Source: Candidatus Kerfeldbacteria bacterium
Lineage (GTDB): Bacteria > Patescibacteriota > Patescibacteriia > SBBC01 > CAIJZX01
DNA length: 64,000 nucleotides
Assembly: GCA_016193315.1 (NCBI GenBank)
Contig: JACPSJ010000001.1
Coordinates: forward strand, 155,981-219,980
Reading direction: 5' to 3'
Shown: positions 4,667 to 64,000 of the stretch, in pieces
How positions within the stretch are numbered: position 1 is the stretch's first letter
How the letters are laid out: each line of letters opens with the position of its first letter
Translations under genes and position numbers: made by a program
The notes under the pieces: model-generated
Database searches by the model: none
The model's input: the letters and a program-made list of their open reading frames with translations, nothing else
What the model was told of the DNA's origin: nothing

Positions 4667-4739
4667 GCGCCCGTAGCTCAGTGGATAGAGTACATGGCTT
4701 CGGACCATGGGGTCGCAGGTTCGAATCCTGCCGGGCGCG
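4667..4739 (+). tRNA. tRNA-Arg (anticodon TCG)
   Basis: Cloverleaf read by hand: acceptor GCGCCCG/CGGGCGC, D-arm GCTCAGTGGATAGAGT, anticodon loop CTTCGGA, T-arm GCAGG-TTCGAAT-CCTGC. Confidence 0.8.
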
Positions 4740-5380
4740 GTTTGGCGCTAGCTTCGGACCAGAAGGGTCGCGGCCGGTTGCGAAGCAAAGAAGATGAACT
4801 GCTTCATCTTCGTCCGGCCGCGACGGGTGACGCCATGCTTCGAAGGAGCAGGCGGCACCCAGGAACGGGGTTCGAATCCCTCAGGGCGCACCATTGAAAA
4901 TACGTCCCGCGAAGGCGGGACCTTCATTCGGTTGCGACCGAGGGATGAGAAGGGCAGGAGTGAGGCCGAGCAGAGCGACGGCCGAACGTCCGCCGAGCTG
5001 CCAGTGGCAGGTCGGCGCTGACCAGGGTCGAATCCCTCAGGGCGCGCCCGCGCCCGTTTGGATTCGAAGGGGTCGAGACTACAAGCGAAGCCAACTGCTT
5101 GGCTTCGCTCGCGACCGCCGAGACGGGCGAGCCGATGTTCCGAAGGAACAGCGAGACCCAGGCTCGAGCACCCCTGGTCCCGGATCAAGTCTGGGATGGC
5201 GGGAGAGCGCAAGCCCCGGCCTCGAAGAGGCGAATCCCTCAGGGCGCGATTCGACAAATAATTTGCTTTTGGCCCGGTCCGGACGCAGGCCGCGTCCCAT
5301 AAATCAGCCCCGGCTTTCGCCCGGGGTAAACTCCGCGAATTTTGCGGGATTCGAATCCTGCCGAGCGCTGGGACTTGTCT
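4740..5380 (+). repeat. Four tandem ~150-200-nt highly structured tRNA-like repeats; three end in the identical 3' element GAATCCCTCAGGGCGC (one followed by ACCA) and a fourth in GGGATTCGAATCCTGCCGAGCGC; contain nested GC hairpins including loops AACTGCTT
   Basis: Direct reading: repeated T-arm/acceptor-like 3' ends at ~4871-4893, 5027-5050, 5228-5250, 5347-5372; no matching 5' acceptor strands found, so not canonical tRNAs; track ORFs here are spurious. Confidence 0.45.
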
Positions 5381-5869
5381 TTTCCCATGATTTGTGTATA
5401 CTCATGGTGTGCGGTTGTTGATCGGTTGGTCGTCGACTGCATCCGCAACAAAAGGCGTCAAAACAAAACGGAGGACTCTATGTCCGAACACGCGCTGGAA
5501 GTACTGCCGAGCGGCGAAGGAGAGCCGTCGGAGTTTGCGCGCTCGGGCGGCGAGATCCTCGAGCGCGACGATGCCGGCCGCCCGCGACGGTGGCTTTGTG
5601 GCTTTGACAAGGAGGGGCACAAGATCGACCCGCCCGATCTCAACGGCTCACCCGTTCTCCATGAGCTTGATGCTCGAGGAAGATGGGAGGGGCGTCGTTC
5701 CGGACGCGGAGGATTTGGCCGAATATGACACCTGGCCTCACCACTAGCCCCGACTCGACGGAGCCGCGGCTTCGAAACGTCGACCACGAGACTGGGCCCC
5801 TGGCCGCAGTCTCTTTTTTTGAGTGGACGATTCTAGTACAGTTGCCAGAGGCACCGCTTTTTGCTTCAA

Positions 5870-6035
5870 TGCAGGCATCGGGGTGTGGCCTAGCGGTAAG
5901 GCGTCCCGCACCGAATCGGGGATTAGCGCCCCGTAAAATGCCGTCTCTCGGCAAGCTCGAGACGGAATCACGGGGCAAGCAGTTGGAAGCCCGCCTGCTT
6001 CTTGCCCGTCACAACACCATCAAGAGTTTCCCGCA
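5870..6035 (+). ncRNA. tRNA-like element: canonical-looking 5' half (acceptor, D-arm GGCC-TAGCGGTAA-GGC, anticodon-like loop CACCGAA) followed by ~100 nt of extra hairpins instead of a normal T-arm/acceptor; possible pseudo-tRNA or interrupted tRNA
   Basis: Hand folding; contains CAAGCAGTTGG hairpin shared with other repeats in window. Confidence 0.25.
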
Positions 6036-6039
6036 GAGT

Positions 6040-6112
6040 CGGGGCGTGGCGCAGCTGGTAGCGCGCGTGGTTTGGGACCACGAGGTCGCGAGTTCAAATC
6101 TCGCCGCCCCGA
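6040..6112 (+). tRNA. tRNA-Pro (anticodon TGG)
   Basis: Acceptor CGGGGCG/CGCCCCG, D-arm GCGCAGCTGGTAGCGC, anticodon loop TTTGGGA, T-arm GCGAG-TTCAAAT-CTCGC; flanked by a 10-bp extension of the acceptor helix (CCGCAGAGTC/GACTCTGCGG). Confidence 0.8.
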
Positions 6113-6300
6113 CTCTGCGGACAATACGCGATGGGAGCGGGAGGGTCGAGGCCGCGAGCGAAGCGTCAGCGACAGAACTGCTTCTGTCGCGGCGGCTGAG
6201 ACGGGCGTCGCCCTGCTACGCAAGAGCGGCGGCGCTCCGGACGCGGTTCGAGTCTCGGTACCCCGACCATTCGAAACACAATCTAAAAAACACAGACCTC
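6113..6300 (+). repeat. Structured repeat downstream of tRNA-Pro (CAGAACTGCTTCTG hairpin; homologous in inverted orientation to part of 34080-34150)
   Basis: Sequence similarity read by eye between 6160-6225 and reverse complement of 34080-34150. Confidence 0.4.
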
Positions 6301-6377: not shown

Positions 6378-7214
6378 ATGGGATACGAAATCAAATTGGA
6401 TAACGTTTTAAGTACAGCACGCGTTGGTATAAACCGTGCGTGGGTGTTTATGGGCCTCGGTGTCAATGCTGCTTCGATTGAGACCCTTACCCCAAACGTT
6501 ACGGGCGCTTCTTACCTTAAGCTTCTCCCGGACGAAATCTCCGCAGACAGTCTGCGAGAATTTAAAACTGAGTTCAGGACATGGGTCGTTGTCAAGGGTT
6601 TAGAGGAACTAATCGAAGTGTTTGGCGTTTTTCTTGAACAGCTATATTCTATGGTGCTGTTCGTTGATGCCTGGAAAAGTAAGGGGCAAGTTGACCAAAA
6701 ACAAATAAGCCAATTTACCGAAATGGGTATTAGGGAAAAACTGAATATCCTTAATCGAAATTTTGGCATTGGCACAGCGTTTAACGATGACATCGTGTCT
6801 GTAAATCAAGCGAGACACTGTCTTACCCATAGGCTGGGTATCGTCGCAACTCGAGACCTGAATACGTCCTCAGGCTTGAAAGTTCAGTGGCGCACACTTC
6901 AGCTCTACGGACACAATGAGGATGGCTCTGAGTTTGTCCCTGACATGGAACGATTTGAACCGGAAGGATTAAAAAAAGAACCAGTAGTGTTTCCAAGGGG
7001 CTCCCCTGCAAAGATGAGGAACGACCCACGTTCCAAAGTATTTCCGATCGGATCACGAGTAGTGCTGGAACCTCGCGATCTAAAAGAAATTTGTTTGTGG
7101 TTCTCTCTATTGCTGAATGAATTGAATGAGAGCGTAATTAAATATTGCGAGAAATCGGGTGTTCATGTTACGCGGCTTGCTGGACAAACTCCCGGAGCGA
7201 CTTCGAAGAGTTAA
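6378..7214 (+). CDS. Hypothetical protein with HEPN-like Rx4H motif (ARHCLTHR); possible Abi/HEPN-type defence or RNA-targeting protein; lies in a low-GC island next to tRNA-Pro
   Basis: 278 aa ORF in AT-richer segment (6.3-7.6 kb); R-HCLT-H motif; no other recognisable domain. Confidence 0.4.
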   Translation: MGYEIKLDNVLSTARVGINRAWVFMGLGVNAASIETLTPNVTGASYLKLLPDEISADSLREFKTEFRTWVVVKGLEELIEVFGVFLEQLYSMVLFVDAWKSKGQVDQKQISQFTEMGIREKLNILNRNFGIGTAFNDDIVSVNQARHCLTHRLGIVATRDLNTSSGLKVQWRTLQLYGHNEDGSEFVPDMERFEPEGLKKEPVVFPRGSPAKMRNDPRSKVFPIGSRVVLEPRDLKEICLWFSLLLNELNESVIKYCEKSGVHVTRLAGQTPGATSKS

Positions 7215-7575
7215 TGGAACAGATAAGGCGGAAGAGTGGGTGTCCGTCGCTAAGAATCATTGTTCTAACATCATCCACCAACCCCGACCAAGTTAGACAT
7301 TGAGAATTTTCGGAAGAAGGTACGCGCTCGCTTCGCTCGCGCGCTGGGGGGATTTTATTCTGATTTTCCGCCACAATTCGCCATTCGCCAGACCAATCCC
7401 AGCCGACTTTTTTGGCAAGCAGGCGGCGGTTCGTTCCAATTTTTTCCACCAACGATTTTATTTCATCAAAATCGATGGACGAAGCCAGTTTTTCGGCGTG
7501 GTGAGCGGTTAAAATCCATTCGCGCAAAGATTCGATCCAATTGTTTCCCTTTCGCCCAAAATCTGTCTTTTCCAA
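7168..7575 (-). CDS. Hypothetical protein (low-GC island)
   Basis: 135 aa ORF, overlaps 3' end of previous gene by ~45 bp. Confidence 0.3.
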   Translation of the reverse strand: MEKTDFGRKGNNWIESLREWILTAHHAEKLASSIDFDEIKSLVEKIGTNRRLLAKKVGWDWSGEWRIVAENQNKIPPARERSERVPSSENSQCLTWSGLVDDVRTMILSDGHPLFRLICSINSSKSLREFVQQAA

Positions 7576-7657
7576 TTGAGGTCGTGTGAACCACTATATG
7601 TCTGGGTACGTTACGTTTTCGACTGATTCCTTTGTCAAAATATGGTACACTACACAA

Positions 7658-9274
7658 ATGATAAAAACCAAGCAAAAGACTGTTCTACACATCCTCGCCC
7701 CCACAGCGGTCATCGCACTGGGTTTCTCGCTGCTCGGCGTCAGTGCTTTTGTTTTTTGGAATAGCGTTCGGCGGCCTACGACCACCATTAATAGAAATGT
7801 AACTTCCGCACCCACGCTGACGACGGACGTTGATACGACGCCGCCGACAGTTTTTTTTGTAAGCCCAACCAACGGACAGACCGTTTCGGGTTTGGCGGAC
7901 ATTACGGCGAACGCCAGCGACAATTCCGGGATTCTCAAGGTTGATTTTTTCCTTGATGAAACAAAGCTGCTCGGCACGGTCACACCAATAGCCCGAGGAA
8001 TCTGGTTATCGCCCGATGAGATCATGGCGTTGCCGATCACAAGTCAGCTTGGTTGTGAGACCGGCACACCGTGCGCCGCGGCGTGGACCGCCATGCGGAG
8101 CGAAGCGGAGAGGCTGGTTCCAGGCAACGCTGATATTTCCGATCAGGATTCCTATCATGATGTCCAGACCATGGCCGCGGCCTTGGTTTGCGTTCGAACT
8201 GGTGAATTCTGTGCCCCAGCCCGACAGGCCGTACTGGCGGCAATCGGTACCGAGGAAAGAACCTTAACGACGCCGACTGAACCCCCGGGAAATCAGTGGT
8301 TGGCAGTGGGCAGAAACCTCGGCGCCTACGTCATTGCCGCGGACCTGCTCGATTTGCGGGCAAGCGCTAGCCCCGAGGGCCGACAGGTCCAAGACTGGAT
8401 CCAAAGTTTCATCGGCCGCGTGGCGAGTTTAGGCGCCTCCTTCGGCGCCTTTCAAAGCGGTTCAAACGCCTCGGCCCAAGAGGGCTTTGTCTATGCCGCC
8501 GTCGCCGCTTTCTTGCATGACGCCGATGAGCTGGCATACGTTTGGAATCGATTTCAATTTTTTACCGGCGCCAGCAACGAGGGAACAGATGACATTGATC
8601 TCAACAAGGGCCTTGAGTATGGCTGGGCTCACAACGACGATCCCAACCTGGCGCTTCCGATTAATCCAATTGGTTCGACCAAGGTCGTTCCATCGGGATA
8701 TCCGGGCGCGGGCACGACGCATCGAGTTGACGGCGCCGTGATCAATGATCAGCGGAGAGGCGCTCAGTACCAGTGGCCACCCGTCTATACGCATTACCCC
8801 TGGGTCGGCCTGGAAGGGTCGATTCCGGCGGCGCTGATTCTTGAGCGCGCTGGGTATCGCTCGTTTGCCTCGGCCGATCAGGCTTTGTTCCGCGCGGTCG
8901 ATTACCAATGGTGGTTGGGTCAGGAATTGGGTCAAAGCCCGGCTTGCACTTTTGACTGTTGGTGGGATTACAACCGGGCCCTGGATATTAAGCACCTGGC
9001 CAACTGGCGGTACGGCACTGACCATCCGCACCTGACACCAGTGGCCGGCGGCCGAACAGTCGGTTTTACGGACTGGACGCATCCCACGTTGCTCGACATA
9101 GTCGCGATCGTTCCATACAGCATGACCTGGGATTTAACCCAACTAGTGAGCCTGGGTAATCACGTCTTGAGCGCCAAGTCCTGGGATACATCCGGTAATC
9201 TAGCGACCGCAGAGATTACAGTCTCTGTCTCCGACGATGGCGGCGGTGGCGGTATAAGAAAAATCCCAGAGTAA
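7658..9274 (+). CDS. Secreted/membrane-anchored protein with N- and C-terminal Ig-like (Big) domains and a central polysaccharide-lyase-like (alginate lyase/heparinase-like) region
   Basis: Start moved to ATG 7658 (MIKTKQK..); signal-anchor helix; Ig-like strands TPPTVFFVSPTNGQTVSG.. and SWDTSGNLATAEITVSVSDDGGGGG. Confidence 0.45.
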   Translation: MIKTKQKTVLHILAPTAVIALGFSLLGVSAFVFWNSVRRPTTTINRNVTSAPTLTTDVDTTPPTVFFVSPTNGQTVSGLADITANASDNSGILKVDFFLDETKLLGTVTPIARGIWLSPDEIMALPITSQLGCETGTPCAAAWTAMRSEAERLVPGNADISDQDSYHDVQTMAAALVCVRTGEFCAPARQAVLAAIGTEERTLTTPTEPPGNQWLAVGRNLGAYVIAADLLDLRASASPEGRQVQDWIQSFIGRVASLGASFGAFQSGSNASAQEGFVYAAVAAFLHDADELAYVWNRFQFFTGASNEGTDDIDLNKGLEYGWAHNDDPNLALPINPIGSTKVVPSGYPGAGTTHRVDGAVINDQRRGAQYQWPPVYTHYPWVGLEGSIPAALILERAGYRSFASADQALFRAVDYQWWLGQELGQSPACTFDCWWDYNRALDIKHLANWRYGTDHPHLTPVAGGRTVGFTDWTHPTLLDIVAIVPYSMTWDLTQLVSLGNHVLSAKSWDTSGNLATAEITVSVSDDGGGGGIRKIPE

Positions 9275-50376: not shown

Positions 50377-53300
50377 GCTGGTGGCTTTTTCTGTTCACAT
50401 GGCGTTTGACAATGAACGAATGATTCGCTTGAATGGCGGGGCTGCGCCTAGCCCCGGATGGGTGCTGTTCCGCGTCCAAGTCCACGTCTCGGTCTGGCAA
50501 GGCATTCTTTGGGGCCCCGCGCCATTCAAGGTGCGGGGCGTTTTCTTGACATCAATCCATCCGGGTGGTTCTCTGTGACAGCGGTGACTAGGTTTGGCGC
50601 GCCGTCGAAGTCATGTCCGGCCACAGCCAAGCAATCGCAGCGTTCTCTCCGGAGCCCCGATGATGAAATCGGGGCTGTTTCTTGACATTCTCGAAATCCT
50701 TCTGTACATTGCTGTCGCTCACCTGGCAGGGTTTCCACCCGTTGACCACGCTCCGCAACGTTGGCGACAGCCACGACGACGTGCGGCCGGGACCGCTATT
50801 CTTTGGGGCCCCGATCAATCTGTCGGGGCTGTTTTTCTTGACAGACCGTCAGGTGTCATGTAAAAAAGTCTTCATCTTCGGTCAGCGCTGTCGCTTGGAT
50901 CGCCAACCTTGCGTCGGGCGCGCTGCGCCTAAGCCGACAGTGCCCAGCCTAGCTCCTCTCTGGATCCCGATCACTCACCTGGTCGGGATGTTTTTCTTGA
51001 CTAGCCCACGTACTCGTGGTACATAGCTGTCGATTGTATCCATTGCGGATGGGTGCGGACAGGTAGCCCGCGGCATAACAGGCCCAGCCAAGCCCGGGTC
51101 AGCCATTGTGGTCTTTGGGTCCCGATCTGACAACAGGTCGGGACATCTTTTTATTGACACGGGAACAGCCTAACGATATAGTACGGCGAACTCGGTTAGG
51201 TCCGGCTGCCTATGCCATGCTTCGCCCAAGCAAGCACCGGCCCCGCATCGACCGCCGTGCCAAGCCGTTCTCCGGATCCTCCGTCTCTGACGGAGGATAT
51301 TTCTTGACATGAAACTGTTCTCTTGTTAAAGCGGGGCTGGCTCCTTGCCCAGGTCAGGTGACGCCAGTTGCGCCGGGCTCAGCTGTCCCGGTACAGCCAA
51401 CGGCCAGCATTGCCGCCGCCAGCACAGGCATGTCTATCTTTCCTTCGGGTCCCGATCGCGCTAGATCGGGACTCTTCGCTTGACTTTTTTAAAAACTTTA
51501 GTATAAAATTATTGCGTTTCTCGCGGCTGTGTTCGCCCGGCCGAGCTAAGGAGTTGACAGCTCCGGCACGCTGCTGAACGGTAGGCTCCTCTTTGGGCCC
51601 CGCATCATTCTCGGAATGGCGTGGGGCTGTTTTCTTGACAACCATTGCTCGGACAGGTACTTTCCACTGCGCTCCGCGCGACGGGACATTTTCTTGACAA
51701 ACAGGCCGGGGTGTCCTAGGTTGTCTCGCGAACCACCTGGCCCGCCTGCGCGAGACAGGCAGCGCCGACGCAGGGTACTGATTGACTGGCCGTGGTGTAC
51801 TTGCGAGTTCTATGGGGCCCCGTCTGGTATTACCGAGCGGGGCCGTTTTTTTGACGAACCAAGACGAAACGAATATAGTGTTCGAGTCGTTTTCCGGCCA
51901 GGCCTGGTTGGGATAGCCACCCCATCCAGCGCCATGCCTCCCCGTGTCAGGGATAGGCCAGCACCTCTCCGGGCCCCGATCACGTTGATCGGGACTGTTT
52001 TCTTGACAGGGTGTGTATTTGCTCCTACCCTTAGCCAACGCCCCACGCCGACCTAGTCTGACGACAGCAAGGGTCAAGCAGACTATCACGCCGCAGGCCA
52101 CTTCAGGCTCCGGGTCCCGATCTGACAACAGGCCGGGACTTTTTTCTTGACAACTTTTGATATTGCACCTATCGTCTCGCCAGACAGTATTGCCGTACGG
52201 CACTGTTCGTCTAGCAACGGCACCGCTTCCCAACGAAGACCTAGCTAGCCTACGGGTCCCGGTCTGAAAACAGGTCGGGACGTTTTATTGACGAAAAAGG
52301 GATAAACAACTAAGGTGTCGAAGTTCTATCCGGCCAGGTACGCCGGGCACAGGCGGCCAGCGGAAAGCCACCGTCAGCCCCCGCTCGCCAACGTCCGTCG
52401 CGCTCCGCACAGCCCGTCTCTGGGTCCTCCGCCTCTGGCGGAGGACGTTTTTCTTGACGCGAATGGGAAGTCGGTGATACGGTGCGCCTTGCGTTGGCAA
52501 AACCCGGCTGACCATCGTTGGGCATCGTATGTTCCTCACCGCCGGACAAGCGCGTCAAACGCCAGGCAACTCTTTGGGTCCCGATTCTCACGACTCGGGA
52601 CTATTTATTGACACAGATTATTAACTCGAGTAGGCTCGCGGGAGTATCACGGCTGGGCGATACTTCCAACGCACCCGCATCCCGATCAGTGTCATGCTCC
52701 TCTGTGGGTCCCGGCCGCTATACGTTGCCGGGACATTTTCTTGACGCGCATACACCATTTTGCTAGTTTGCGCATTGGATTGGCTGGCCATGTTAAGGTC
52801 GGGCCCGACAGAGTGCCGCCAGCTGCGCAAGAGCATGCCCTACTATGGGTCCCGGTTCTGATGAATCGGGACTTTTTCTTGACATGCGCTCAATCCTCGC
52901 TTAGGGTGAAACGCGCCTCATGCAGTCCAGGCGAGGTCCGCTTTGGCTGAGTAAGGCATGAATGGCCTAGGTGCGGTTGGCTGCTCTACGGGTCCCGATT
53001 CTCACGACTCGGGACATTTTCTCGACACGACTTTTTCGATAATGTACTTTCTGACAACTTGGCCCGCCGGGCATTGGATGAGTAGGCCATGGCATCCTTC
53101 GGTCCACTTCGGGGCTCCCGCAAACACGGGAGCCGATTTTTTCTTGACTCTTGTTGGTTGATCAAGTAACTTGCCTATCGTCAAGTTTCACGGCTCGGTG
53201 AGGATAGCTCCGCACTGCCTAGCCGGAGCGCCGTCAGGTGACGTTCGCTTGGGATAGCTTTGGAGGCGGGACGCCAGTCTCGCCTTTTTGCTTGACAAGT

Positions 53301-53575
53301 TTCGATCGCAACCCTAAAGTTTCAGCTCTCGCCTCGCTCCGGTTCTGTGTGACAGGGCCAAGTACCGCAGCACGAACCTCTCTTTGGGGCTCCCCCATCA
53401 TGATGGGAGCCTTTTGTTTGACAATCTCATCCGGTAGGGTCTAAGTTCACACAGTACGCAGGGCCTCGGATAGCCGCGGAGCCCATTTCCTTCCCGTGTT
53501 TCGGCTAGGCCAGCCGTTCTAAGGGTCCCGACTTCATCGGTCGGGACTTATTCTTGCTTGACAAAATTGTGCATC
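50340..53575 (+). repeat. Array part 1: ~23 tandem promoter-body-terminator minigene units (~135-175 bp each). Unit = TTGACA -35 / 17 bp / TAnnnT -10 in variable region, ~70-100-nt variable GC-rich body, conserved tail (..CCTAGG..TCTTTGGG + GC hairpin of conserved structure but variable/covarying sequence + T4-6) directly abutting next TTGACA
   Basis: Read directly: -35 boxes at 50406, 50546, 50681, 50838, 50996, 51164, 51304, 51479, 51645, 51693, 51850, 52003, 52147, 52287, 52453, 52608, 52741, 52878, 53021, 53144, 53292, 53427, 53568; each followed at 17+-1 bp by TAnnnT (TACATT, TAAAAA, TACATA, TATAGT, TAAAGC, TATAAA, TATCGT, TAAGGT..). Confidence 0.7.
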
Positions 53576-53684
53576 TCCGTTAAGGCTGGTGTACGCTCCT
53601 TCCAATCCATCACTGGACTATCGGATCCGAAGGCGCGCTTCGTCCACGCTGTTTGCCTCTTCACCACATCTTTGGAGGCTCACC

Positions 53685-55532
53685 GTGAAGCGTCAGAAGC
53701 CGCGGCCACCATTGCCGCGCAAGCTCAACCTGCTGGAGTATTTTCCGTACCATCTGTACCCAGTCATGCGACCGAATCAGCGGCTTGGTCTCGAGACTAT
53801 TGAGGCCAACGACGGATTGGCGACCCTCGAAGCGCCGACCGGCAGCGGCAAGATGGCCATCGGCTACACCTTCCTCAAGGCGCTGGCCGCTCAGCGCCTG
53901 GGGCCGCTGTTCTACATCGTGCCGACGAAGACGCAGGTCGACCAACTCGTCCGGTACCACCCGGATCTCATCCCGGTCTACGGGCGGAACGAGCACGACT
54001 GTCTGTATTACCCGGACCTGTCGCTGAAGGCGGATGAAATTCCAACCGTCCTCTGCCCAGGCTGCGATCACTTCGTCAACCAGGAGACCGGCGCCGTCAA
54101 CGTACCCGGCGTCGTGCCCTGTCCGTACTACCTCCAGAAGTACCAGGCGAAGCAGGCGCCGATCGTCGTCTGCACCATGGCCTTCTACCTCTTCACCCAG
54201 CTCTTCTCGCAGGAGTGGGAGGAGCCGGCCGGCCTGGTCATCGATGAAGCGCACCAGTTCCCCCGGGTCGTCCGTAACTGCCTCAGCTACGAGATTACCG
54301 ACTACCACTTGTGGCGGTCGGCCGACCTCTTGGCGGAGATCGACGGCGTCGCCGCGCACCAACTGCGGGACTTCGGCCGGAAGATGATTTCGATCATCAA
54401 GCGGAAGCCAGCCGGGCAGGGAACGCTGCTCAAGGACGAGGAGATCATTCAGCTTATCGAGCTGCTCGACGTCATCGACGCCGGGGCGGTCGAACGCGCC
54501 CTCAGCCGGGCCATTCGGCAGGGGCTGATCGACGTCAAGCAGGACCGCGAGACGTTGAAGCAGCTGGAGACGATCGTTCGCGACCTGCGGCGGTACCTCC
54601 ACACCCTCGAGTACTCGCTGCCGACGAAGCAGCGGCACGCCCTGAACTACACCTACGGCTTCTACGAGGAGGAGATGGGGCCGAACGACAAGGCTCAGTA
54701 CCGTCTGGTCATCAAGGCGCACTACGTCGCGCCGATTATCGCCAAGATCCTGAGCCCGCGGACGGTGGCGTATTCGGCCACCATCGGCGATCCGCCGATC
54801 TTCCAGGGCGAGACGGGTATCCGCGCCGACGTCTTCGAGTTCGGTTCGGAATTCTCTCATCTGAAGACGCGGGTGTTCATGCCGACGGACACTAAGAACC
54901 TGGCCTTCAACACCCGGGGTCGACAGGATGTTACCCGGACGCTGCGGCTGGTGGCCAAAGCGGCCCGTCGCTTCGCCCAACGGGGTCACCGCTCTCTGGT
55001 GGTGATCGTGTCGGAGAAGGAGCGGCAGAAGTTCTTGACCCTGGCCGAGGAGGAGCGGCTGAAGGTCCTGAGCTACGGGAATGGGTCACCCGCTAAGACA
55101 GTGGCAGCCCGGTTTCTTGGCGGTGAAGGAGATTGCCTGGTCGGCACCACCGCCCAGTACGGCGAGGGGATCGATTTGCCACGGCAGTCGGCGCCGGTCA
55201 TCTTTATGCTCCGGCCTGGCTACCCGCATCCGGACGATCCGGGCACGCAGTTCGAGGAGCGGCGCTTCAGCACCGGGCAGGTCTGGGCCATCCGCCAGTG
55301 GCGGGTGATGATGGAAGCGCTCCAGGTGCGGGGCCGGAACATCCGTTCCAGCGACGACCTCGGCGTAACCTTCTTCATGTCCCAGCAGTTCCGGAAGTTC
55401 CTGCGCAGCAGCCTGCCGAAGTGGCTCGAGCGGGCCTACCGCAACACCCGCACCTTTGACCAGTGCGTCGAGGAGACGATGGAGTTGTTGAGCCGAGGCG
55501 ATCGAGGTCTGACGGCTGGAATACAGCAGTGA
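53685..55532 (+). CDS. DinG/XPD/Rad3-family superfamily-2 DNA helicase with FeS-cluster cysteines (type IV CRISPR Csf4-like size)
   Basis: Start GTG 53685 after GGAGG; Walker A-like TGSGKM, DEAH box (VIDEAHQF), four Cys (HDCLYY, CPGCDHF, CPYY) in FeS insertion, C-terminal helicase motifs (GTTAQYGEGIDLP); expressed from the -35/-10 of the last array-1 unit and terminated by first array-2 hairpin. Confidence 0.8.
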   Translation: MKRQKPRPPLPRKLNLLEYFPYHLYPVMRPNQRLGLETIEANDGLATLEAPTGSGKMAIGYTFLKALAAQRLGPLFYIVPTKTQVDQLVRYHPDLIPVYGRNEHDCLYYPDLSLKADEIPTVLCPGCDHFVNQETGAVNVPGVVPCPYYLQKYQAKQAPIVVCTMAFYLFTQLFSQEWEEPAGLVIDEAHQFPRVVRNCLSYEITDYHLWRSADLLAEIDGVAAHQLRDFGRKMISIIKRKPAGQGTLLKDEEIIQLIELLDVIDAGAVERALSRAIRQGLIDVKQDRETLKQLETIVRDLRRYLHTLEYSLPTKQRHALNYTYGFYEEEMGPNDKAQYRLVIKAHYVAPIIAKILSPRTVAYSATIGDPPIFQGETGIRADVFEFGSEFSHLKTRVFMPTDTKNLAFNTRGRQDVTRTLRLVAKAARRFAQRGHRSLVVIVSEKERQKFLTLAEEERLKVLSYGNGSPAKTVAARFLGGEGDCLVGTTAQYGEGIDLPRQSAPVIFMLRPGYPHPDDPGTQFEERRFSTGQVWAIRQWRVMMEALQVRGRNIRSSDDLGVTFFMSQQFRKFLRSSLPKWLERAYRNTRTFDQCVEETMELLSRGDRGLTAGIQQ

Positions 55533-55559
55533 ACAACGAATAGGCAAAACCTGGGTTAC

Positions 55560-58500
55560 CAAGTGTAGGCAACCCCCAGGCAAGAAAGAGTGCTCTCTGG
55601 GACCCCCGATCGAATGATCGGGGGTCGTTTTCTTGACAGGTGTTGAGCTTATCATTAACCTGCAGCCGCTAGCTACGGACCGGCTAGGAACGGTGGGCCA
55701 CGTTTTGGCTGAGTCCGGACGGCCGGACCCAGGTCGCCTAGAGTGTTCTATGGGGCCCCGATCATTTGGTCGGGGTCGTTTTTTGACTTCCTCCAAGGTT
55801 GGGTGTAGGGTCTTCCAATCCGCCAGCCTTCGGCAGGTAACGGTAGTTCTGGGTAGCCAGTCCTGTGGCACGGGCTCCAACGCGCGGATGGGATCGCCTT
55901 GGTTTTGCATGGTTTGTCTCGCTCCGGGTCCTCCGCCTTTGGTGGAGGACTTCTTTCTTGACATAAAGCAACCAAGCGAGTAGGAAGTTGATACCGGAGT
56001 GGTACGCGCCGCCCCGGAAAGCTAGGCTCTTTGGCGGTATGCCACGCTGGCCTGCACTGCGGGACCTCATTCGGAAGAATGAGGTCGTTTTTCTTGACAT
56101 GCCCACGAAATAATTCTAGTGTGCGAGCGCCGCGCCTAGGAATTCTTTGGAGCCCCGTTCGCAAGAACGGGGCTGCTTTCTTGACACGACCTATTTTTTC
56201 CTGTAAGACCTTTTGCACCCGGTGCTGAATCCAATGCACTGGTGCGCCATCGCGCGGCAGCCGCATCAATCGGCACGCTGGGCTACGCTTCGGGACGGTG
56301 ACTCACCATGGTCGCCGTCTTTTTTCTTGACACGACGAATGCAATGCAATAGGCTTGCCCAGCAGTATTCCCGCTGCGGACAGCCATGACCCGCACCGTT
56401 CCGCTAGGCTGCGGTCAGCCGTTCTTTGGAGCTCCGTTCGCAAGAATGGGGTCAATTTCTTGACAAACTGCCTGATTCAGTTAGCCTACCCAATCACCAG
56501 AAGTCCCATCCTCAGCCTTGGTGTCCCGTGACAACCATCGCTATGGTTGGGCCTGGTCCGGAGGGCCGTCCTTTGGAGCCCCGTTCGTCAGAGCGGGGCT
56601 TTTTCTTGACTGCCGTTATTACTTTTGATAGGGTCGGCCGACACGCCTAGGCTTGCCTTGGTTAACCAAGCACCGCCGTCGTCGGCCACCCCAGCGCCAT
56701 CTTCGGAGCCCCTGATCATTCGATCGGGGGCGTTTTTCTTGACTCTCGCTGGATCATCCTGTACAACGTCCAAACCAGGTGTGCCTGACCTGCCAGGACC
56801 ATGCCTGTGTGGGCCTTGGAATGCACGGCCATACTCTGGGGCCAGCTCGTCTTTACGCGAGTTGGCCTACTTCTTGACAGCGTGAAAGCATTACTCTAGT
56901 TTTCAGCCATTCCATGCGCCTCGGATAGCTGCGCTATCGCGCGATGCGTAGCGGAACGGACTGGTGGAGTAGTCATTGGTTCTCTGTGGGGTCCCATCAG
57001 TCGGTGGGGGCTTCTTCTTGACTGAACGAAAAATACGCTGATAGATTCTGTCGACCCGCCAGGGAAAGCAAAGCCGCGGAATTCCTCGGATCGCCGCGCC
57101 TCGCCTGCCTGTGCCATGACAGCCTGATCTTCGGTGCCTCATCCATCCGGGTGGGGCATGTTTCATGACATCCCCTGGGGAGAGAGAATAATCTTGGTTG
57201 TCCACGCGCCTCGGAAAGCTTTCCTAATGGCGATACGTAATTGAACTGATTTCGTGGTTGTAAGTGGCTATCCTTGGTTTCCCGACGTAATGTGGGGCTT
57301 TCTCCTTGACCAGAACACTCAATTGTCTGTAATTTTCCAATCCTCGGAAAACCATGGTCCGGCGGGCCTGTCTCTGCCTGCGTCAGCCTCGCTCTTCCAG
57401 GCTTAGCCTCGCTTTGGGTCCTCCGTCGCTGACGGAGGACATTTTCTATTGCGATTGCTTGACAAATCCGGGGATGACGATTAGGTTGCCGACACTAGGC
57501 TGGCCCGGCTTTCCTAGGGCAAGTCGGCCTGTCCCGGAGCATCCGGCGGACAGCTCAGCATAGCCATTCTTTGGATCCCACGCAACCGCGGTGGGACTTT
57601 TCTTGACTTTCCGAGGGCCCCGTTCTAAAGTGCCGCGGCTGGATCAAGGCTCGGATAGGCCTCCTTGGCCCCGCAAAGCCTAGGAACCTCTGGCCGCGGA
57701 CGGCCCCGGACAGGATCTCCCTCCCGTTCTTTGGGTCCCCATCAGCCATGGTGGGGATGCTTTCTTGACCGACGAAAATGGATTTGCTAGTTTCTTGCGG
57801 CCATATGGTTAGGCCGGGAACGGCGGCCATCGGTGTTCCAAGCACCGCCTTGGCCAGGCTCGCCTTGCTCCACTTCGGGACCCTGCAGAAATGCGGGGTC
57901 ATTTTCTTGACCTTCTGAAGTTCGAAGCTTATGTCCGTCTGACGTGGTATGGTCGGCTTGGCTAGCGCTGCGTGTCCCTCGCCAGACTCCCCATCGCCAT
58001 CCCTGCTCTAGGCGTCGTGTTCTCCGGAGCCCCGTTCGAAAGAGCGGGGCTGCTTTCTTGACATCGCCCACACCGGGATGTACGGTCGAATGACGCGATG
58101 ATGAACTGTGCCAAGCCAGTCATCGGCCCGCCAGCGCGAGACGCCCCGCCCTTTGCTGCGCAATGCCTCCGCTCTCTATGGGGTCCGTTCGGCAGAACGG
58201 ATCTGTTTCTTGACAGCGTGTGAATTTGGCCGTAGATTTTTTTTGCTTAGGCCGTGGTTCATGATTGTCTTTGTAAGCGGAAACCAGCCCAGGCTAGGTG
58301 TCCCCAGCACTGGCATGGTCGGCTTGCAAGTGGCCAACCACGCCCTGGATGTCTACGGGCCCAGCCCGTGTTTCTGAATCATGACGGGCTGGGCTTTTTT
58401 CATGAGCTTCATCCGGGAACGCAATCTACTGACAAACCAACACGGTTCGGCTAATTTGTCTTGGCATCAGGCGGTTTTTTCGTCAGCCTTAGTGTCGCGT

Positions 58501-59060
58501 GATAACCATCGGTCTGGTTGGGTCTGTTCCGGAGGGCTGTACTTCGGGGCCTCGCTCCACATGAGCGAGGCTGCTTCTTGACGCTAAGTTCATCTCATGA
58601 TAAACACCCGGTCGTCGCAGTCGGCGCCTTGAAACTCATAGTACTCCCGGAACGCCAGCGATCGCCGCAGTGCGGAATTCCAGACCACCGCATCCCCAGC
58701 CGCCGCACGCTCCGTCAGACTTTGGGCCCGACCGCGCAAGCGCGTCGGGCATTTTTCTTGACTAGTTTCATGCTCTGTAGTAGGTTCGTCGGTGTCCGCC
58801 ATGCCCACGCCAGTTTCGGAATGGTATCCTCCCGCCAGTCGCGGCAGTCTGTGGCCCGCTCTGGAGTCCCGATGGTAACACCGCCTTGGGACTTTTCTTG
58901 ACGCCCTGCTCATTCGTTGATAAGAGTATGATGGTTCTGAAATTGATTTCTCGGAATCGACCCGGCAGGCCCAGGATTCCCGAGTCTCGCCATCCCAGCC
59001 ACACCCCAGCTCCTCTTCGGGGCCCCGCCAGCCATCGCGGGGCCATCTTCTTGACAAAAC
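55560..59060 (+). repeat. Array part 2: ~24 further promoter-body-terminator minigene units of the same family
   Basis: -35 boxes at 55633, 55782, 55959, 56095, 56181, 56328, 56460, 56605, 56739, 56873, 57018, 57165 (ATGACA), 57306, 57459, 57603, 57764, 57906, 58058, 58209, ~58398 (degenerate), 58578, 58758, 58898, 59050; same TCTTTGG-hairpin-Tn tails. Confidence 0.7.
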
Positions 59061-59166
59061 CAGGGCGGTTTTGCTAAGGTCGCGGATCGCCTTTTGTTTG
59101 GGCGAACCTGGCTACGCAGGACGCGTGGCAGCTGTACCATCCAATTCTTTGGAAAGGGGCCACCCA

Positions 59167-59811
59167 ATGGCCAACAAGCGGAAGCGCGTCACCGTCCGGT
59201 GCGTCGGGATCGAGCCGATCCTCTTCAACGCCATTCCCGAAGGCCTGCTCATGGACCTGCTGAAGGGCAAGAGCCGGCCGAAGGTGAAGGGCGACGACGT
59301 CGACCTCGACAAGATCTGCGAGGACAAGCTCTACGTCGACGACGACGGCACGCCGTGCATCCCGCGGCTGAACATGTTCGCCGCCCTGAAGTACGCCGGC
59401 AAGTTCGTCAAGGCCGGCAAGAAGAACATCACCGGTGGTGACTCGACCCAGCTGCCGTCGATCCTGACGGTCGAGGGAACGCTGTTCCGTCTCGACAACG
59501 GGACGGCGAACGGCAAGCCGGAGTGGAAGATGGATCTCCGCGCCGGCCGTCACCGCCAGGGCACCTCGAAGGTCATGGTCGCCCTCGTTCGGCCCCGCTT
59601 CGACCGCTGGGGCTTCACCGCCACGGTCTCCTGCGCCGACGACGACGCCACGATCAAGACGGTCAAGCAGCTGTTCTGGGAGGCCGGCGACAAGGCTGGT
59701 CTCGGCGACTACCGCCCCTCGTCGGGCGGCTTCTACGGCCGCTTCCGGCCGGTGGGCTTCACCGTCGAGGACATGGTCGAGGAGACCGAGTTCGCGGCGG
59801 CCGTGGCCTAG
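59167..59811 (+). CDS. Basic ~214-aa protein, paralog A (array-associated); C-terminal glycine-rich loop GLGDYRPSSGGFYGRF reminiscent of RAMP (Cas5/Cas6-type) G-rich loops - tentative
   Basis: ATG 59167 after AAAGGGG; driven by last array promoter (TTGACA 59050); N-terminus RKRVTVRCVGIEPILFN shared with paralog B. Confidence 0.55.
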   Translation: MANKRKRVTVRCVGIEPILFNAIPEGLLMDLLKGKSRPKVKGDDVDLDKICEDKLYVDDDGTPCIPRLNMFAALKYAGKFVKAGKKNITGGDSTQLPSILTVEGTLFRLDNGTANGKPEWKMDLRAGRHRQGTSKVMVALVRPRFDRWGFTATVSCADDDATIKTVKQLFWEAGDKAGLGDYRPSSGGFYGRFRPVGFTVEDMVEETEFAAAVA

Positions 59812-59893
59812 CCGCTGTACGGTCGTTTCCTTTCGGGACGGCGGGACGCGAAGCGTCCCGCCGCCGCTTCACCTACGGATCGGAGGAACTGCC

Positions 59894-60532
59894 ATGCTGC
59901 GGATTCACGTCCGATGTGTCGGCCTCGCCCCGCTATTGATGAACCGGCCCGACCAGCAAGCGCTGGTCGAGTGCGTCGCCGGCAACGGCCGCTCGTCCCG
60001 TTCGGACCAGGAGGTCTTCGAGTCGAAGATCTACCGGGCGCCGGACGGACGGATCGCCCTGCCGCGGCCGATGCTCCTGGCCGTGCTGAAGAACGCCGGT
60101 CGCGAGGTCAAGCTCGGTCGCCAGAAGGTGACCACCCCCGAATCGACGCTGCTCAGCAGCCTGCTGAGCATCAAGGAGGAGTATCTCACCCTCGACGGCG
60201 GCCGGCCTGGTTCGGAGCCGCTGGTCGAGCGGGATTCCCGTCGGGCCATCCAGCGGCAGGGTCGGAAGCAGGAGCGGGTGCGGGCCGTCCGCCCGAAGAT
60301 CAAGCGGTGGGGATTCGAGGTGACGCTCTGCGTCAGTTCGCCCTCCCAGGCGCGGATCGCCCGCCAGCTGTTCGATGTCGCCGGGGCCGAGGGCTACCTC
60401 GGCGATTTCCATCCATCGTCCAAGTTTCGCAAGAAGCTCAAGGCGAACGGCTGGAAGGCTCCGTTCAATCGGTTCGCCGTGACCGAATGGGCGGTCGAGG
60501 CGGTGCTCGAGGAAGCGATGGCAGCGGTGTAG
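59894..60532 (+). CDS. Basic ~212-aa protein, paralog B (N-terminus MLRIHVRCVGLAPLLMN; shared motifs K(I/L)Y..DG, RWGF..T)
   Basis: ATG 59894 after GGAGG; ~25-30% identity to paralog A by eye. Confidence 0.55.
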   Translation: MLRIHVRCVGLAPLLMNRPDQQALVECVAGNGRSSRSDQEVFESKIYRAPDGRIALPRPMLLAVLKNAGREVKLGRQKVTTPESTLLSSLLSIKEEYLTLDGGRPGSEPLVERDSRRAIQRQGRKQERVRAVRPKIKRWGFEVTLCVSSPSQARIARQLFDVAGAEGYLGDFHPSSKFRKKLKANGWKAPFNRFAVTEWAVEAVLEEAMAAV

Positions 60533-60747
60533 ATCTGGTATTCTCGACGGCGCCGTTCTGATCAGGCCTGTCAGGGACCCGATCGCCACAACTACATGAT
60601 GTGTCCTTTGGAGCGTCAGGAGAAATTCCTGGCGCTTTCTTTTTCGCCACAACAACTTGACAGCGAGCGTCTTTTCTGCTAGGCTGCTCGGTTGGTTAGC
60701 TGTCTTGTCGCTTGTCGTCACCGTCTCTCACAGCTACGGAGGCTTCC

Positions 60748-61071
60748 ATGTACATTCCCAAGCGAATTCTGCTCATGGTCGTGCTAGCGTTGGTGCTAGT
60801 GGGTACCACGGCCTTCACCCGTGTGCGACGCGCGACTACGGTCCCGAATGTGGAGATAATCTCCCTCGGGCTGAACGCCACGTTCGCCGACGGGAAGCCG
60901 ATTACCAAGCCGATCCGACTGGCTCTCCACCGCGTCGGCACGAAGCATCTCGGCGCACAGTACGTGGTGGTGACCGGGCAGCCCGACAGGAATGGCTTTA
61001 TGACTGTTACCGCCAAGGTCCCGGTTGACCCGAAGTTTCAACCGTTGGTGCGGCTGGCGCTTCAGAGATAA
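60748..61071 (+). CDS. Small secreted/membrane-anchored protein (signal peptide)
   Basis: ATG 60748 after GGAGG; preceded by a degenerate array-type tail+promoter (TCCTTTGG-hairpin-TTTTT..CTTGACA-17-TAGGCT at ~60595-60680). Confidence 0.45.
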   Translation: MYIPKRILLMVVLALVLVGTTAFTRVRRATTVPNVEIISLGLNATFADGKPITKPIRLALHRVGTKHLGAQYVVVTGQPDRNGFMTVTAKVPVDPKFQPLVRLALQR

Positions 61072-61081
61072 TGGAGGAATC

Positions 61082-61462
61082 GTGGACCACCCAACCTATA
61101 TTTATCTTCAGCCCGGCGAGCAAAACGAGCCGCGGCGAAGGCAGCTGGAAGCCAAGCTCGAGGCCTACCGGCGTCGGGTGGCCGAAGCCGGCGACAGTCC
61201 AAGCGGAGGCGTCGAACCGTTCTGGTTTTGGAACGACCGGGCCAAGCTGATCATCCTCGAGCGGTTGCTCAGAGACGGGCGGGTCGATCGGACCGAGCTG
61301 CATCGGGAACTCTGGCTCAATCATGCTACGAACCCGATCGTCAGATACTCGCACTGGCAGTACGGCAACCCCTTCCACACCGCCTTCGACGTGATATTCG
61401 ACTACGTTGAAACCGGCGGCGCGAACGTCATGGGAGGTTCTGGCCTGCCATCACCCCAGTGA
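61082..61462 (+). CDS. Hypothetical protein (~126 aa)
   Basis: GTG 61082 after GGAGG; Trp/aromatic-rich C-terminal half. Confidence 0.4.
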   Translation: MDHPTYIYLQPGEQNEPRRRQLEAKLEAYRRRVAEAGDSPSGGVEPFWFWNDRAKLIILERLLRDGRVDRTELHRELWLNHATNPIVRYSHWQYGNPFHTAFDVIFDYVETGGANVMGGSGLPSPQ

Positions 61463-61592: not shown

Positions 61593-64000
61593 GTGGTGGA
61601 AGCAACAGACAAAAAGGAAAACACCCACCAGCGACACCGTCGGCATCTTCATATCCACATCGCCTGGACGACCGCGGCCTTGATTTTTTTTGGTTTGGGA
61701 GTTTTTCTTTCACTTCGGACGGAAGAGTTGCCGCGGGTGGAACGGCCGGCCGTGGTTCGGGCTGGCGAAAGCGGAACCGCCGCCTCAAACGAGTTGAGCA
61801 GTAGCTGCATTTTAACCCGAGCCGATTACGACGCCGACGGTCAGATTACCGAAACGGACGTCCAGCGGTACCTGAAGTATCGAGCGGCCCGAAGCACCGG
61901 TGCCGACCTCAATGCAGACGGGGCGAACGGAGACCTCCGCGACGACGCCTGCATGGAAGCCTTCTACTCGGCGGGCAAGCTGTGGCCGCAGATCGTGTCG
62001 CCTTCAGCCGGAGCCGAATTGCACGGCGTCGTGCCGCTCATCGCCGAGTCGTCAATTTTTCAAACCTTGGAGCGGTTGACGCTACGTTTCACCACCCCGG
62101 AGGGCACGACCTATGCCCGTGATTACCAAGTCAGCACGGTTCTCAATCCGGAGAATCACGAGGCGGTAGTTATTCCTTTCGACAGTTTAGCCATGGCCAA
62201 CGGCCGGGTGACGATCACCATCTGCCCGACCGGCGGAACGACCACGGAGTGCGCGCGACCGGTGGAGTACGTGGTTAAGAACACGGCCAAGATCCACGAA
62301 CCATCGTCCCAGGCCACCATCAGTGGCCAGCGGGCTAAATTCAGTGCGACCATCAGTGGGATTGTCACCTATGCCCGGTTTGAGATTCGTGCCACCTCCG
62401 GCGGTAGCTGCGGCGGCCAGTCGGCATTCTCCCTAACCACCTCAAAAGTCGACGGCAGCGGACGCCCATATTTCTACCTTGACACCACCGGCTGCACGAA
62501 CGGGGTCTACCTGGCTCGCCTGTCGTACCTGCCGATCTGGCAGACCTTCTATACGGCCGCCGGGAAATCCCCGGTGGCGGAAACTACCTTCACTGTCGCC
62601 AATGCGGTGACCACCACGAATAGTGCCAGTGATGCTGAAGAAGAATCAACCGCGGATACCACCAACACCTCCAATGCGTCCGACGGCAGTTCAACAACCA
62701 CTGACGAAGGAACAACCTCGACTGACGACAGCCAGCTCATTCACGACGACGATCAGCCAGACAACTCGACGACCACCACGCAGGCTTCCGACCTCACCGT
62801 CCCGGACATCACCAAGCCGAAAGCCAACACCAACCTCTACGAACTCAAGGCGGTCACCGGCCGGGTCAGCCGCGCTGACCGGGTCGGCTTGATCCTGAAA
62901 TACCACTCCGGTCTTGATAGCAGCGGGTGCAGTCTCAGCGGCGGCGACTACGTCATTCAGGAGCAGTCGGTGCCGATCGCTTCGGACGGAACATTCCGTC
63001 TCCCGGTACCGAAGGCGCTCAAGCCCGGGGTGTACGCCCTGGCCAGCGCGGCGTTTGACGACGGCCGCAGCGGCCCGACGAGAAGCCTCTGCTTCCGGGT
63101 ACTGAATCCATTGGTCAAATTAGCGACCGCCGATCAGGAACGCTTGTCAGGGAACGGTCGCCTCGACGCCTACGCCATCGGGCCGGTGAGCGCCGTGGAG
63201 TTCTATGCCGCCCAGGGCGATCTGCCGCCGCTGTTTGTTGGCCGGGCAAGTTCCTCGGTGTCGGGGAACGAGCGACTGTGGACGCTGGCTTTTGACACCC
63301 GCAACTATCAGCCCGGGACGTATCAGGTAACGGCCGAGGCCACCGCCTTGAACGGTGTGACGGTGACCAGCGCAACCATTGCCGTCACCATTGACAACCA
63401 GACGGAAAACGCCCCCCGCTCGAGCCTGACCGTCAGCCCGCCGACCATCGCTGACGAACCAGACGTGCCAGACGAAGTTGATGCCACGGAAGTTGAGCGT
63501 CAAACCGTCGCCACCCAGCCGAAGCCGGCCGCGACTCAGCCGATTGAACATCCTAAGCGAACGGGCACGGCGAACCCTGAGAAACTGAAAGTCCTGACCG
63601 TCGCTAATGTTGACCGAGCGGCGGAGGAAAAGCCGGTCCTCAAACTAACCGGTGTCGGGCCGCCGAACTCGATCGTTACCATCTTTATCTACTCGAATCC
63701 GATCGTCGTCACCACCCGCACCGACGCCAGCGGGAACTGGTCATACTCCCTCGACCGAAACCTGGTTGATGGGCAGCATGAGGTCTACGTCACCATCACC
63801 GACCAGACCGGGAAGATCGTCGAGAAAAGCAACCCGCTTAGTTTCTTCGTGGCTGAAGCGCGCGCGGTGAGTGAAGAAGAGTTCGTCCGGCGGGAAGTAC
63901 CGAGCACGCGACCGAGCGATACGTATCTGTTCCTCTATATCGCCGGCGCCAGCCTGATGGTTACCCTGACGATCCTCGTTTTCTTGCTGCTGAGGTTGAA
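61593..64000 (+). CDS. Large cell-surface protein, 3'-partial at window end: signal-anchor, dockerin-type Ca-binding repeat (DYDADGQITETDVQRY...DLNADGANGDLRDD), multiple Ig-like domains, Thr/Asp-rich linker, terminal hydrophobic anchor
   Basis: Continuous open frame (phase of 62166) from GTG ~61593 to the last base; not in ORF track because no stop inside window; translated by hand. Confidence 0.6.
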   Translation, partial: MVEATDKKENTHQRHRRHLHIHIAWTTAALIFFGLGVFLSLRTEELPRVERPAVVRAGESGTAASNELSSSCILTRADYDADGQITETDVQRYLKYRAARSTGADLNADGANGDLRDDACMEAFYSAGKLWPQIVSPSAGAELHGVVPLIAESSIFQTLERLTLRFTTPEGTTYARDYQVSTVLNPENHEAVVIPFDSLAMANGRVTITICPTGGTTTECARPVEYVVKNTAKIHEPSSQATISGQRAKFSATISGIVTYARFEIRATSGGSCGGQSAFSLTTSKVDGSGRPYFYLDTTGCTNGVYLARLSYLPIWQTFYTAAGKSPVAETTFTVANAVTTTNSASDAEEESTADTTNTSNASDGSSTTTDEGTTSTDDSQLIHDDDQPDNSTTTTQASDLTVPDITKPKANTNLYELKAVTGRVSRADRVGLILKYHSGLDSSGCSLSGGDYVIQEQSVPIASDGTFRLPVPKALKPGVYALASAAFDDGRSGPTRSLCFRVLNPLVKLATADQERLSGNGRLDAYAIGPVSAVEFYAAQGDLPPLFVGRASSSVSGNERLWTLAFDTRNYQPGTYQVTAEATALNGVTVTSATIAVTIDNQTENAPRSSLTVSPPTIADEPDVPDEVDATEVERQTVATQPKPAATQPIEHPKRTGTANPEKLKVLTVANVDRAAEEKPVLKLTGVGPPNSIVTIFIYSNPIVVTTRTDASGNWSYSLDRNLVDGQHEVYVTITDQTGKIVEKSNPLSFFVAEARAVSEEEFVRREVPSTRPSDTYLFLYIAGASLMVTLTILVFLLLRL

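Follow-up and report, generated by a model that had tools for sequence, protein, structure and literature searches.

A probable chromosomal VIPR system with tandem Vipr paralogs and about 40 predicted guide RNA genes in a genome labelled Candidatus Kerfeldbacteria

In a stretch of 64,000 nucleotides from a metagenome-assembled genome (MAG) labelled Candidatus Kerfeldbacteria (assembly GCA_016193315.1, contig JACPSJ010000001.1, positions 155,981 to 219,980; in the following called the window), we analyzed two adjacent genes, viprA and viprB, which follow the last unit of an array of small RNA-like units. The proteins A and B encoded by them are members of the Vipr family, that is, minimal Cas7-like RAMPs with an RNA recognition motif (RRM) core, a G-loop, a thumb hairpin and a small helical bundle. 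Very probably, the locus is a chromosomally encoded Viral Interference Programmable Repeat (VIPR) system. Such systems consist of a Vipr protein, vrRNAs and vap accessory genes and act by RNA-guided silencing of DNA, in which transcription is repressed; they were proposed in 2026 to predate CRISPR (bioRxiv 10.64898/2026.04.26.720920 and 10.64898/2026.04.26.720927; in the following called the VIPR preprints).

An earlier note on this DNA, made from the letters alone, had pointed to two paralogous small basic proteins terminating the array and had suggested that they might be RAMP-like RNA-binding proteins. The paralogy of A and B is real and not a chance similarity, because BLASTP aligned them over their whole length (~210 residues) with 33% identity and an E-value of 1e-31. 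Both proteins are basic, with isoelectric points of 9.0 (A) and 10.2 (B), and all motifs quoted in that note are present: the N-terminal strands RVTVRCVGIEPILFN in A and RIHVRCVGLAPLLMN in B, KLY..DG and KIY..DG, the motif pair ALKYAGKFVKAGKK and VLKNAGREVKLGRQ, RWGFTAT and RWGFEVT, and the Gly-rich GLGDYRPSSGGFYGRF close to the C-terminus of A. Starting A at the TTG of position 59071 would give a longer open reading frame (ORF), but one that overlaps with the promoter. NCBI lists an identical protein for a MAG labelled Candidatus Kerfeldbacteria; it is annotated as hypothetical only and also begins with MANKRK. Transcription of both genes is predicted from the promoter-like site ahead of viprA, and a terminator-like hairpin closes the operon (Table 1).

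Scans of A and B against Pfam, NCBIfam and PADLOC, Cas models included, gave no match. Both proteins matched phrog_4652 of the PHROGs database in full length (1.5e-16 for A and 5.4e-7 for B), a family without annotated function. A profile built from six sequences (A, B and four homologs) returned the Vipr of Escherichia phage SUSP1 (PDB chain 36pp_D) as the only significant match among the PDB sequences, with an E-value of 1.6e-4. An exhaustive profile search gave 3245 family representatives, and with a profile of 86 sequences the SUSP1 Vipr was found at an E-value of 1.8e-12, as the only PDB match below 0.1. Positions 2–194 of this profile aligned to residues 1–192 of the SUSP1 protein, which is its full length.

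The AlphaFold2 models of both proteins were confident (pLDDT of 94.5 for A and 90.6 for B). In the model of A, a long beta-hairpin spans residues 121–145, helices lie at 25–33 and 47–53, and the G-loop extends from 178 to 191. The top 50 Foldseek matches in the PDB were, for each model, all Cas7-type RAMPs, namely type VII Cas7, Csm3 and domains of Cas7-11, with a probability of 1.00 and E-values of about 1e-7 to 1e-4. Compared with the backbone RAMPs of class 1 Cas7 type, the E-values were about 1e-7 to 1e-5 and the TM-scores 0.5–0.6, at a sequence identity of 12–14%. The RAMP-like character suggested in the earlier note was thus borne out by structure prediction as well as by the profile match to the SUSP1 Vipr.

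The alignment also placed the RNA-contacting residues of the SUSP1 Vipr. The thumb arginine R138 corresponds to R142 in A and R133 in B; in the G-loop, D177 corresponds to D181 and D171, W178 to Y182 and F172, and R179 to R183 and H173, while H17 corresponds to N21 and N17. R142 and the neighboring W148 are invariant in the 86 relatives, and the arginine and proline of the G-loop are conserved in more than 90% of them. The G-loop of A reads G178-L-G-D181-Y182-R183-P. Because its GDYRP aligns with the RNA contacts D177-W178-R179 of SUSP1 Vipr, the Gly-rich loop of A, which had already been likened to the RAMP loop from its sequence, is a RAMP G-loop.

The array upstream of viprA extends from 50406 to 59050 and comprises about 40 units on the plus strand, roughly 135–160 nt each, with one gene interrupting. 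The units follow the same layout: a TTGACA −35 element, a −10-like hexamer, a body of pentamers of ~60–80 nt, the motif CTNNGG, a GC hairpin and a T-run that directly abuts the next TTGACA. We counted 37 terminator-like sites, 36 of them on the plus strand, compared to 11.5 ± 3.1 in shuffled sequences, and 12 strict sigma-70-like promoters compared to 2.3. In both halves of the array, Fourier analysis of G and of G+C yielded a peak at a period of 5 and none at 3; the genes for Vipr and for the helicase described below show period 3. To delineate the repeat we anchored the pentamer register on the GG of the tail and pooled 39 units with 10 pentamers each. G occurs in 3% at position 1 and in 62% at position 4, positions 2 and 3 are near-uniform, and position 5 is C in 48% and G in 40%; in a subset of 23 units the register gave a chi2 of 359 (p = 2e-69). 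The resulting consensus is H-N-N-G-S, with three constrained bases (G in 62%, S, meaning C or G, in 88% and H, meaning not G, in 97%) alternating with two free ones. It corresponds, in degenerate form, to the YNNGG (GGY/NN) vrRNA repeat as published, for which the VIPR preprints also list 'a related consensus' in some types (NNNGG, YNNNG and NNNNG). Runs of five H-NN-G-S pentamers occur 14 times in the window, compared to 1.8 in shuffles.

The units contain ~12–16 pentamers each, and the array is predicted to express separate vrRNAs. In the example unit listed in Table 1, the pentamers CCCGC CAGGG AAAGC AAAGC CGCGG AATTC CTCGG ATCGC CGCGC CTCGC CTGCC TGTGC CATGA CAGCC are followed by the tail TGATC TTCGG. 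All 39 anchored units end in CTNNGG, a GC hairpin of 8–12 bp and a T-run. The stem sequences differ from unit to unit, and RNAalifold recovered just three pairs from the MAFFT-aligned tails, in which the loop lengths differ; the hairpins of the individual units are the better evidence. Several long minus-strand ORFs lie over the array (51379–52233, 55086–55964, 55748–56269 and 58590–59057); they are almost certainly not genes, because the region has period 5 and no period 3. The loci L001 to L004 are near-identical copies of the window locus (100% identical except for one mismatch in L001).

The gene interrupting the array encodes a helicase of the DinG/XPD family within superfamily 2 (SF2), with a Walker A motif GSGK, a DEAH box and a 4-Cys cluster. 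In Pfam it matched Helicase_C_2 (3e-14) and DEAD_2 (1.4e-5), in NCBIfam DinG/Rad3/YoaA, and in PADLOC the typeIV_DinG model PDLC01439 over its full length (4.9e-43) as well as Csf4_0_IVA (2.6e-5). Its sequence matches in the PDB were XPD and DinG; CasDinG structures of the Pseudomonas aeruginosa type were not among them. The helicase is likely the vap accessory gene of the system. According to the VIPR preprints, types III–V carry nucleases or helicases, with III and V being the nuclease types, and the locus therefore probably belongs to VIPR type IV.

Related loci show how far this arrangement extends. In L005, the helicase occurs together with an A-type Vipr, a B-type Vipr and a few units that share the tail. 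L011–L013 encode the helicase and only one Vipr, with 48% identity to A, along with ~15 promoter/terminator units in the same H-NN-G-S register; they adjoin genes for tRNA-guanine transglycosylase, queuosine and ribosomal proteins, and such housekeeping neighbors indicate a cellular chromosome. L009, the only relative returned by a scan of genome contigs, encodes the helicase and one Vipr (35% identity) together with 16 units that have a TNNGG tail, a GGC..GAAA..GCCA hairpin and a spacing of 79–113 nt, and no internal promoters. In its appearance the L009 array (4400–4740 and 6830–7930) is CRISPR-like and continuous, with 16 copies of a ~25-nt hairpin (GGGGCAGAGTGAAAGACCTCTGCCA-like) and 5-nt periodic stretches between the hairpins that end in TNNGG. 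Neither this array nor that of the window matched Rfam, so they are not hammerhead-interspersed.

Among viral sequences, 14 IMG/VR contigs carry relatives at 27–32% identity, one Vipr each and the helicase in none. In most of these contigs, vipr directly adjoins canonical YNNGG runs, the longest with 14 repeats, compared to ~0.1 in shuffles. The association of Vipr with an array thus recurs in independent loci at 35–62% protein identity, and since cellular loci and viral relatives both pair Vipr with pentamer repeats, the link between this protein and pentamer-repeat RNA is family-wide. A wide occurrence of the proteins apart from any array, named in the earlier note as an argument against its proposal, was not what we found, as the relatives also adjoin pentamer-repeat RNAs. 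The helicase is syntenic with Vipr in four lineages (the window, L005, L009 and L011) and absent next to all 14 viral relatives; it marks a cellular sub-clade of Vipr loci.

The leader of the vipr operon, which together with its promoter is kept in L011, ends in TTCTTTGG and thereby resembles a vrRNA tail, but it lacks the terminator. More generally, the leaders of the vipr operon (59080–59166) and of the helicase gene (53590–53684), as well as L011 9890–10000, carry TTCTTTGG(A/G) at their ends; this is the CTNNGG motif of the vrRNA tails, which here runs into the ribosome-binding site. The vipr leader contains a few in-register H-NN-G-S pentamers. Such tail-like leaders could reflect a common origin of the units or an autoregulation in which Vipr binds its own mRNA.

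A mechanism can be proposed by analogy with the SUSP1 complex solved by cryo-electron microscopy (PDB 36pp). There, Vipr polymerizes along the pentanucleotide repeats with one protomer per repeat and sequesters GGY; the conserved bases are flipped out, the NN pairs are presented, and pairing with DNA skips every third target base (VIPR preprints). Carried over to the window locus, Vipr would bind the pentamer repeats and not the 3′ hairpin. Each array unit would yield a vrRNA from its own promoter and terminator, consisting of ~12–16 H-N-N-G-S pentamers, the CTNNGG tail and the hairpin. Vipr protomers, most likely A, would polymerize on the repeat tract, one per pentamer, sequestering the conserved G-S-H bases and presenting the variable NN dinucleotides, which would read double-stranded DNA such that each dinucleotide is accompanied by one skipped base. 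Binding would block target transcription, with phages or other mobile elements of this host as the presumed targets. The DinG/XPD-like helicase would be the vap protein, presumably acting on the bound DNA.

Several observations weigh against the assignment to VIPR. At the protein level, a phmmer search of the PDB sequences with A alone gave only a weak match to the SUSP1 Vipr (E = 0.16), significance being reached with profiles only, and B has a histidine at the position of SUSP1 R179, where its L005 ortholog has an arginine. In the RNA, just two runs of four strict YNNGG pentamers exist in the window, the second conserved repeat base is C as often as G, and the tail is a simple terminator hairpin and not the pseudoknot of the SUSP1 clade. 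Regarding targets, a search of the window for matches with a 1-nt skip found nothing above shuffled controls at any skip from 0 to 3. Exact patterns of 9–10 NN from six of the ~40 guides were compared in five viral-contig scans and one metagenome scan; four of these patterns had no match, and the other two had seed-only matches that did not extend and were consistent with chance. One candidate target, in L007/L008, was rejected: of four further NN only one continues the match, and the site belongs to an ordinary TPR-like gene on a contig of low GC content. Save for the degenerate repeat consensus, the locus shows the defining features of VIPR, with DNA targeting being a prediction from homology.

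Where on the RNA these proteins bind is the point at which the earlier note and our analysis differ. It had suggested that A and B, if RAMP-like, could bind the conserved 3′ hairpin handle of the array RNAs; RNA binding linked to the array stands, given the RAMP family and the recurrent association, and the handle as the site does not, given that the solved homolog binds pentamer repeats. We consider it improbable that A, B or both are Cas6- or Cas5-like handle binders that recognize the 3′ hairpin and tail and do not polymerize on the body. Every unit does end in the invariant CTNNGG plus a hairpin, and the basic G-loop insertion of B, lacking in single-copy relatives, could provide a new RNA contact. 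However, the stems vary in sequence between units and would make a poor sequence-specific handle, the single-Vipr relatives around L011 use the same tail design without B, the solved homolog places one protomer on each pentamer, and the models resemble a Cas7/Csm3 backbone, with no Cas5 or Cas6 evident among the top matches listed. Hairpin or tail binding is a possibility for the divergent B alone.

The Cas7-like fold of A and B and the match of the helicase to typeIV_DinG could suggest a CRISPR-Cas system of type IV-like or type III-like kind, either minimal or a remnant, with Cas7 subunits, CasDinG and a degenerate CRISPR array. This reading is highly improbable nonetheless. The repeat families within the array are the hairpin plus TTTTCTTGACA and promoter elements, irregularly spaced and without repeat-spacer structure. 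No Cas5, Cas6, Cas8, Cas1 or Cas2 was found among the neighboring genes scanned, the only significant solved sequence relative of A and B is Vipr, and the PDB sequence matches of the helicase include no P. aeruginosa-type CasDinG structure. As there is no repeat-spacer array, no Cas profile match for A and B and no partner cas gene found, the locus is not CRISPR-Cas. Hardly credible is the coincidental vicinity of unrelated elements, with phage-type proteins of PHROG 4652 next to an array of small regulatory RNA genes or promoter/terminator cassettes. It would accommodate a PHROG without annotated function and units without Rfam match, but the association repeats in the independent loci and beside the viral relatives with their canonical runs, and the solved Vipr-RNA complex demands precisely such a period of 5 nt. 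VIPR is therefore the reading we retain.

Within a VIPR system, the tandem pair is unusual. The VIPR preprints count 670 Viprs in 667 systems, which implies that tandem pairs are rare, and their text makes no mention of paralogs. Only three loci contain a B-type protein, recognized by a G-loop insertion ending in Trp: the window (B, recovered as P0007), L005 and L010 (P0136). In each of them the B-type gene lies directly 3′ of an A-type gene. The G-loop of B reads GDFHP, followed by an 11-residue basic insertion, SKFRKKLKANGW, for which the model shows an additional helix; in the orthologs of L005 and L010 the motif is GDFRP. Single-copy relatives have no counterpart of this insertion. Orthologs of B are more diverged (49% identity) than those of A (62%). 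All three dual loci also contain a GC hairpin without a T-run between the two genes (Table 1 for that of the window, GGCGGGACGCGAAGCGTCCCGCC; L005 10704–10739; L010 1407–1431). Its stem sequence differs among them, and the z-scores are −8.1 in L005, −3.4 in L010 and −1.45 for the whole spacer of the window. The hairpin may act in processing, stability or attenuation and so determine the A:B ratio.

As a lineage-specific duplicate, B kept the RAMP core and most RNA contacts, but its G-loop was altered and enlarged. It is not needed for the repeat consensus, the tail design or the helicase, because the single-Vipr L011 has all three. For the same reason, two assumptions were ruled out: A and B do not read two repeat flavors (GG versus GC), as L011 shows the same G-S mix, and the variety of tails does not track the paralogs, as L011 has several stem types, too. 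Most likely, B has a specialized role; for example, it might cap an end of the filament, contact the tail or dock the helicase. We infer that the filament is formed by A, with B as a specialized partner, probably of lower copy number.

A more far-reaching view, which we regard as rather unlikely but worth stating, is that the pair represents an early division of labor among RAMPs within VIPR, with A as a Cas7-like backbone and B as a low-copy cap or adaptor located at the filament end or recruiting the DinG-like helicase. The locus would then be a living intermediate on the way from single-protein VIPR to the multi-RAMP effectors of class 1 CRISPR. The cap or adaptor part draws on the remodelled basic G-loop and the conserved hairpin before viprB; the intermediate part adds the DinG-family helicase and a cellular chromosome with a very large repertoire of guides. 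Type IV-A, in which RAMPs are paired with DinG and silence instead of cutting, would be the closest parallel. If B is specialized, the step from one RAMP to several specialized RAMPs toward class 1 CRISPR becomes directly testable.

With VIPR systems the locus shares a minimal RAMP of ~200 amino acids with G-loop and thumb, in which the R/D/aromatic/R residues for RNA contact are conserved, and an accessory DNA-acting gene. Its predicted RNAs of ~100 nt would likewise consist of pentamer repeats, two positions of which are hypervariable, and of a constant structured 3′ tail. No CRISPR array or adaptation genes were seen. It differs in its two diverged tandem Vipr genes, in the repeat (H-NN-G-S instead of the published Y-NN-G-G) and in the accessory gene, here a DinG/XPD-like helicase. 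Compared to SUSP1, the number of predicted vrRNA genes is ~40 instead of four, and every one has a promoter and a terminator of its own; the tail is a terminator hairpin instead of a pseudoknot, and the locus lies in a cellular chromosome and not in a phage.

The class 1 Cas7 proteins (Csm3, type VII Cas7, Cas7-11 domains) have the same fold, with a G-loop and a thumb that hold the guide RNA at regular intervals. In contrast to them, A and B match no Cas7 profile, the periodicity is 5 nt and not 6 nt, and a repeat-spacer array and the partners Cas5, Cas6, Cas8, Cas10 and Cas11 are lacking. Like type IV-A CRISPR-Cas with CasDinG (Csf4), the locus combines a RAMP-based, RNA-guided complex with a DinG-family helicase. 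Interference by type IV-A acts through transcriptional repression, not cleavage. Unlike type IV-A, the window locus has no Csf1, Cas5, Cas6 or CRISPR array, and its helicase has the 4-Cys cluster typical of XPD/DinG.

VIPR as a kind is already known from preprints of April to June 2026, to which the locus adds a further member; as A is contained in NCBI nr, it was probably within their search. What stands out are the ~40 separately transcribed guides predicted here, the G-S-H repeat and the duplicated RAMP, with the tandem pair in three independent loci. The locus extends VIPR into the chromosome of a bacterium of Candidate Phyla Radiation type. Its guide repertoire (~40 separately promoted vrRNAs) is among the largest in the loci examined, and the degenerate G-S-H code in place of G-G-Y shows how far a protein-RNA register can drift. 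A RAMP-like protein next to a non-CRISPR RNA array is the VIPR signature, and it had been picked up from raw sequence alone.

Table 1 Features of the probable VIPR locus, with coordinates in the window.
Feature	Coordinates	Strand	Details
vrRNA array, first half	50406–53557	+	~20 units; repeat families, period 5, excess of promoters and terminators
Promoter and leader of helicase gene	53558–53684	+	array-type promoter, TTGACA at 53558; read from sequence
DinG/XPD-family SF2 helicase gene	53685–55532	+	615 aa from GTG at 53685; mechanical ORF from 53589
vrRNA array, second half	55533–59050	+	~20 units, same design
Example vrRNA unit	57018–57170	+	promoter TTGACT-18-TAGATT (57018–57047), ~14 pentamers, tail, hairpin
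Promoter-like site ahead of viprA	59051–59079	+	TTGACA-17-TAAGGT; promoter and leader of vipr operon 59051–59166
viprA (gene A)	59167–59811	+	start ATG; 214 aa; Vipr, minimal Cas7-like RAMP
GC-rich hairpin between viprA and viprB	59840–59862	+	no T-run
viprB (gene B)	59894–60532	+	212 aa; divergent Vipr paralog
Terminator-like hairpin downstream of viprB	60610–60638	+	closes the viprA-viprB operon

Directly after the terminator of the vipr operon, a TTGACA promoter (60648) is followed by two small ORFs within 60648–61462 (60712–61071 and 61025–61462 in the mechanical list; 107 and 126 amino acids in the gene calls of L001). Both lack a family match and are not conserved beside Vipr in L005; the first has the look of a membrane-anchored or secreted protein. 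A gene for a large secreted or surface protein with Ig-like (Big_13) repeats, 811 amino acids long in L001, begins ~1.1 kb downstream of viprB (61800–64000). In L001 and L002 it is followed by a histidine kinase. The locus is bounded by these ordinary chromosomal genes. PHROG and Pfam scans of the genes upstream of the array revealed no prophage signature. On a 244-kb contig, the VIPR locus of L005 has as neighbors a tyrosine integrase and a gene whose product carries a Pfam domain of AcrVA2-like type (2789–6148), which hints at a mobile or defense/counter-defense neighborhood. The window's own genome also has an integrase ~8 kb downstream (L002 8816–9787).

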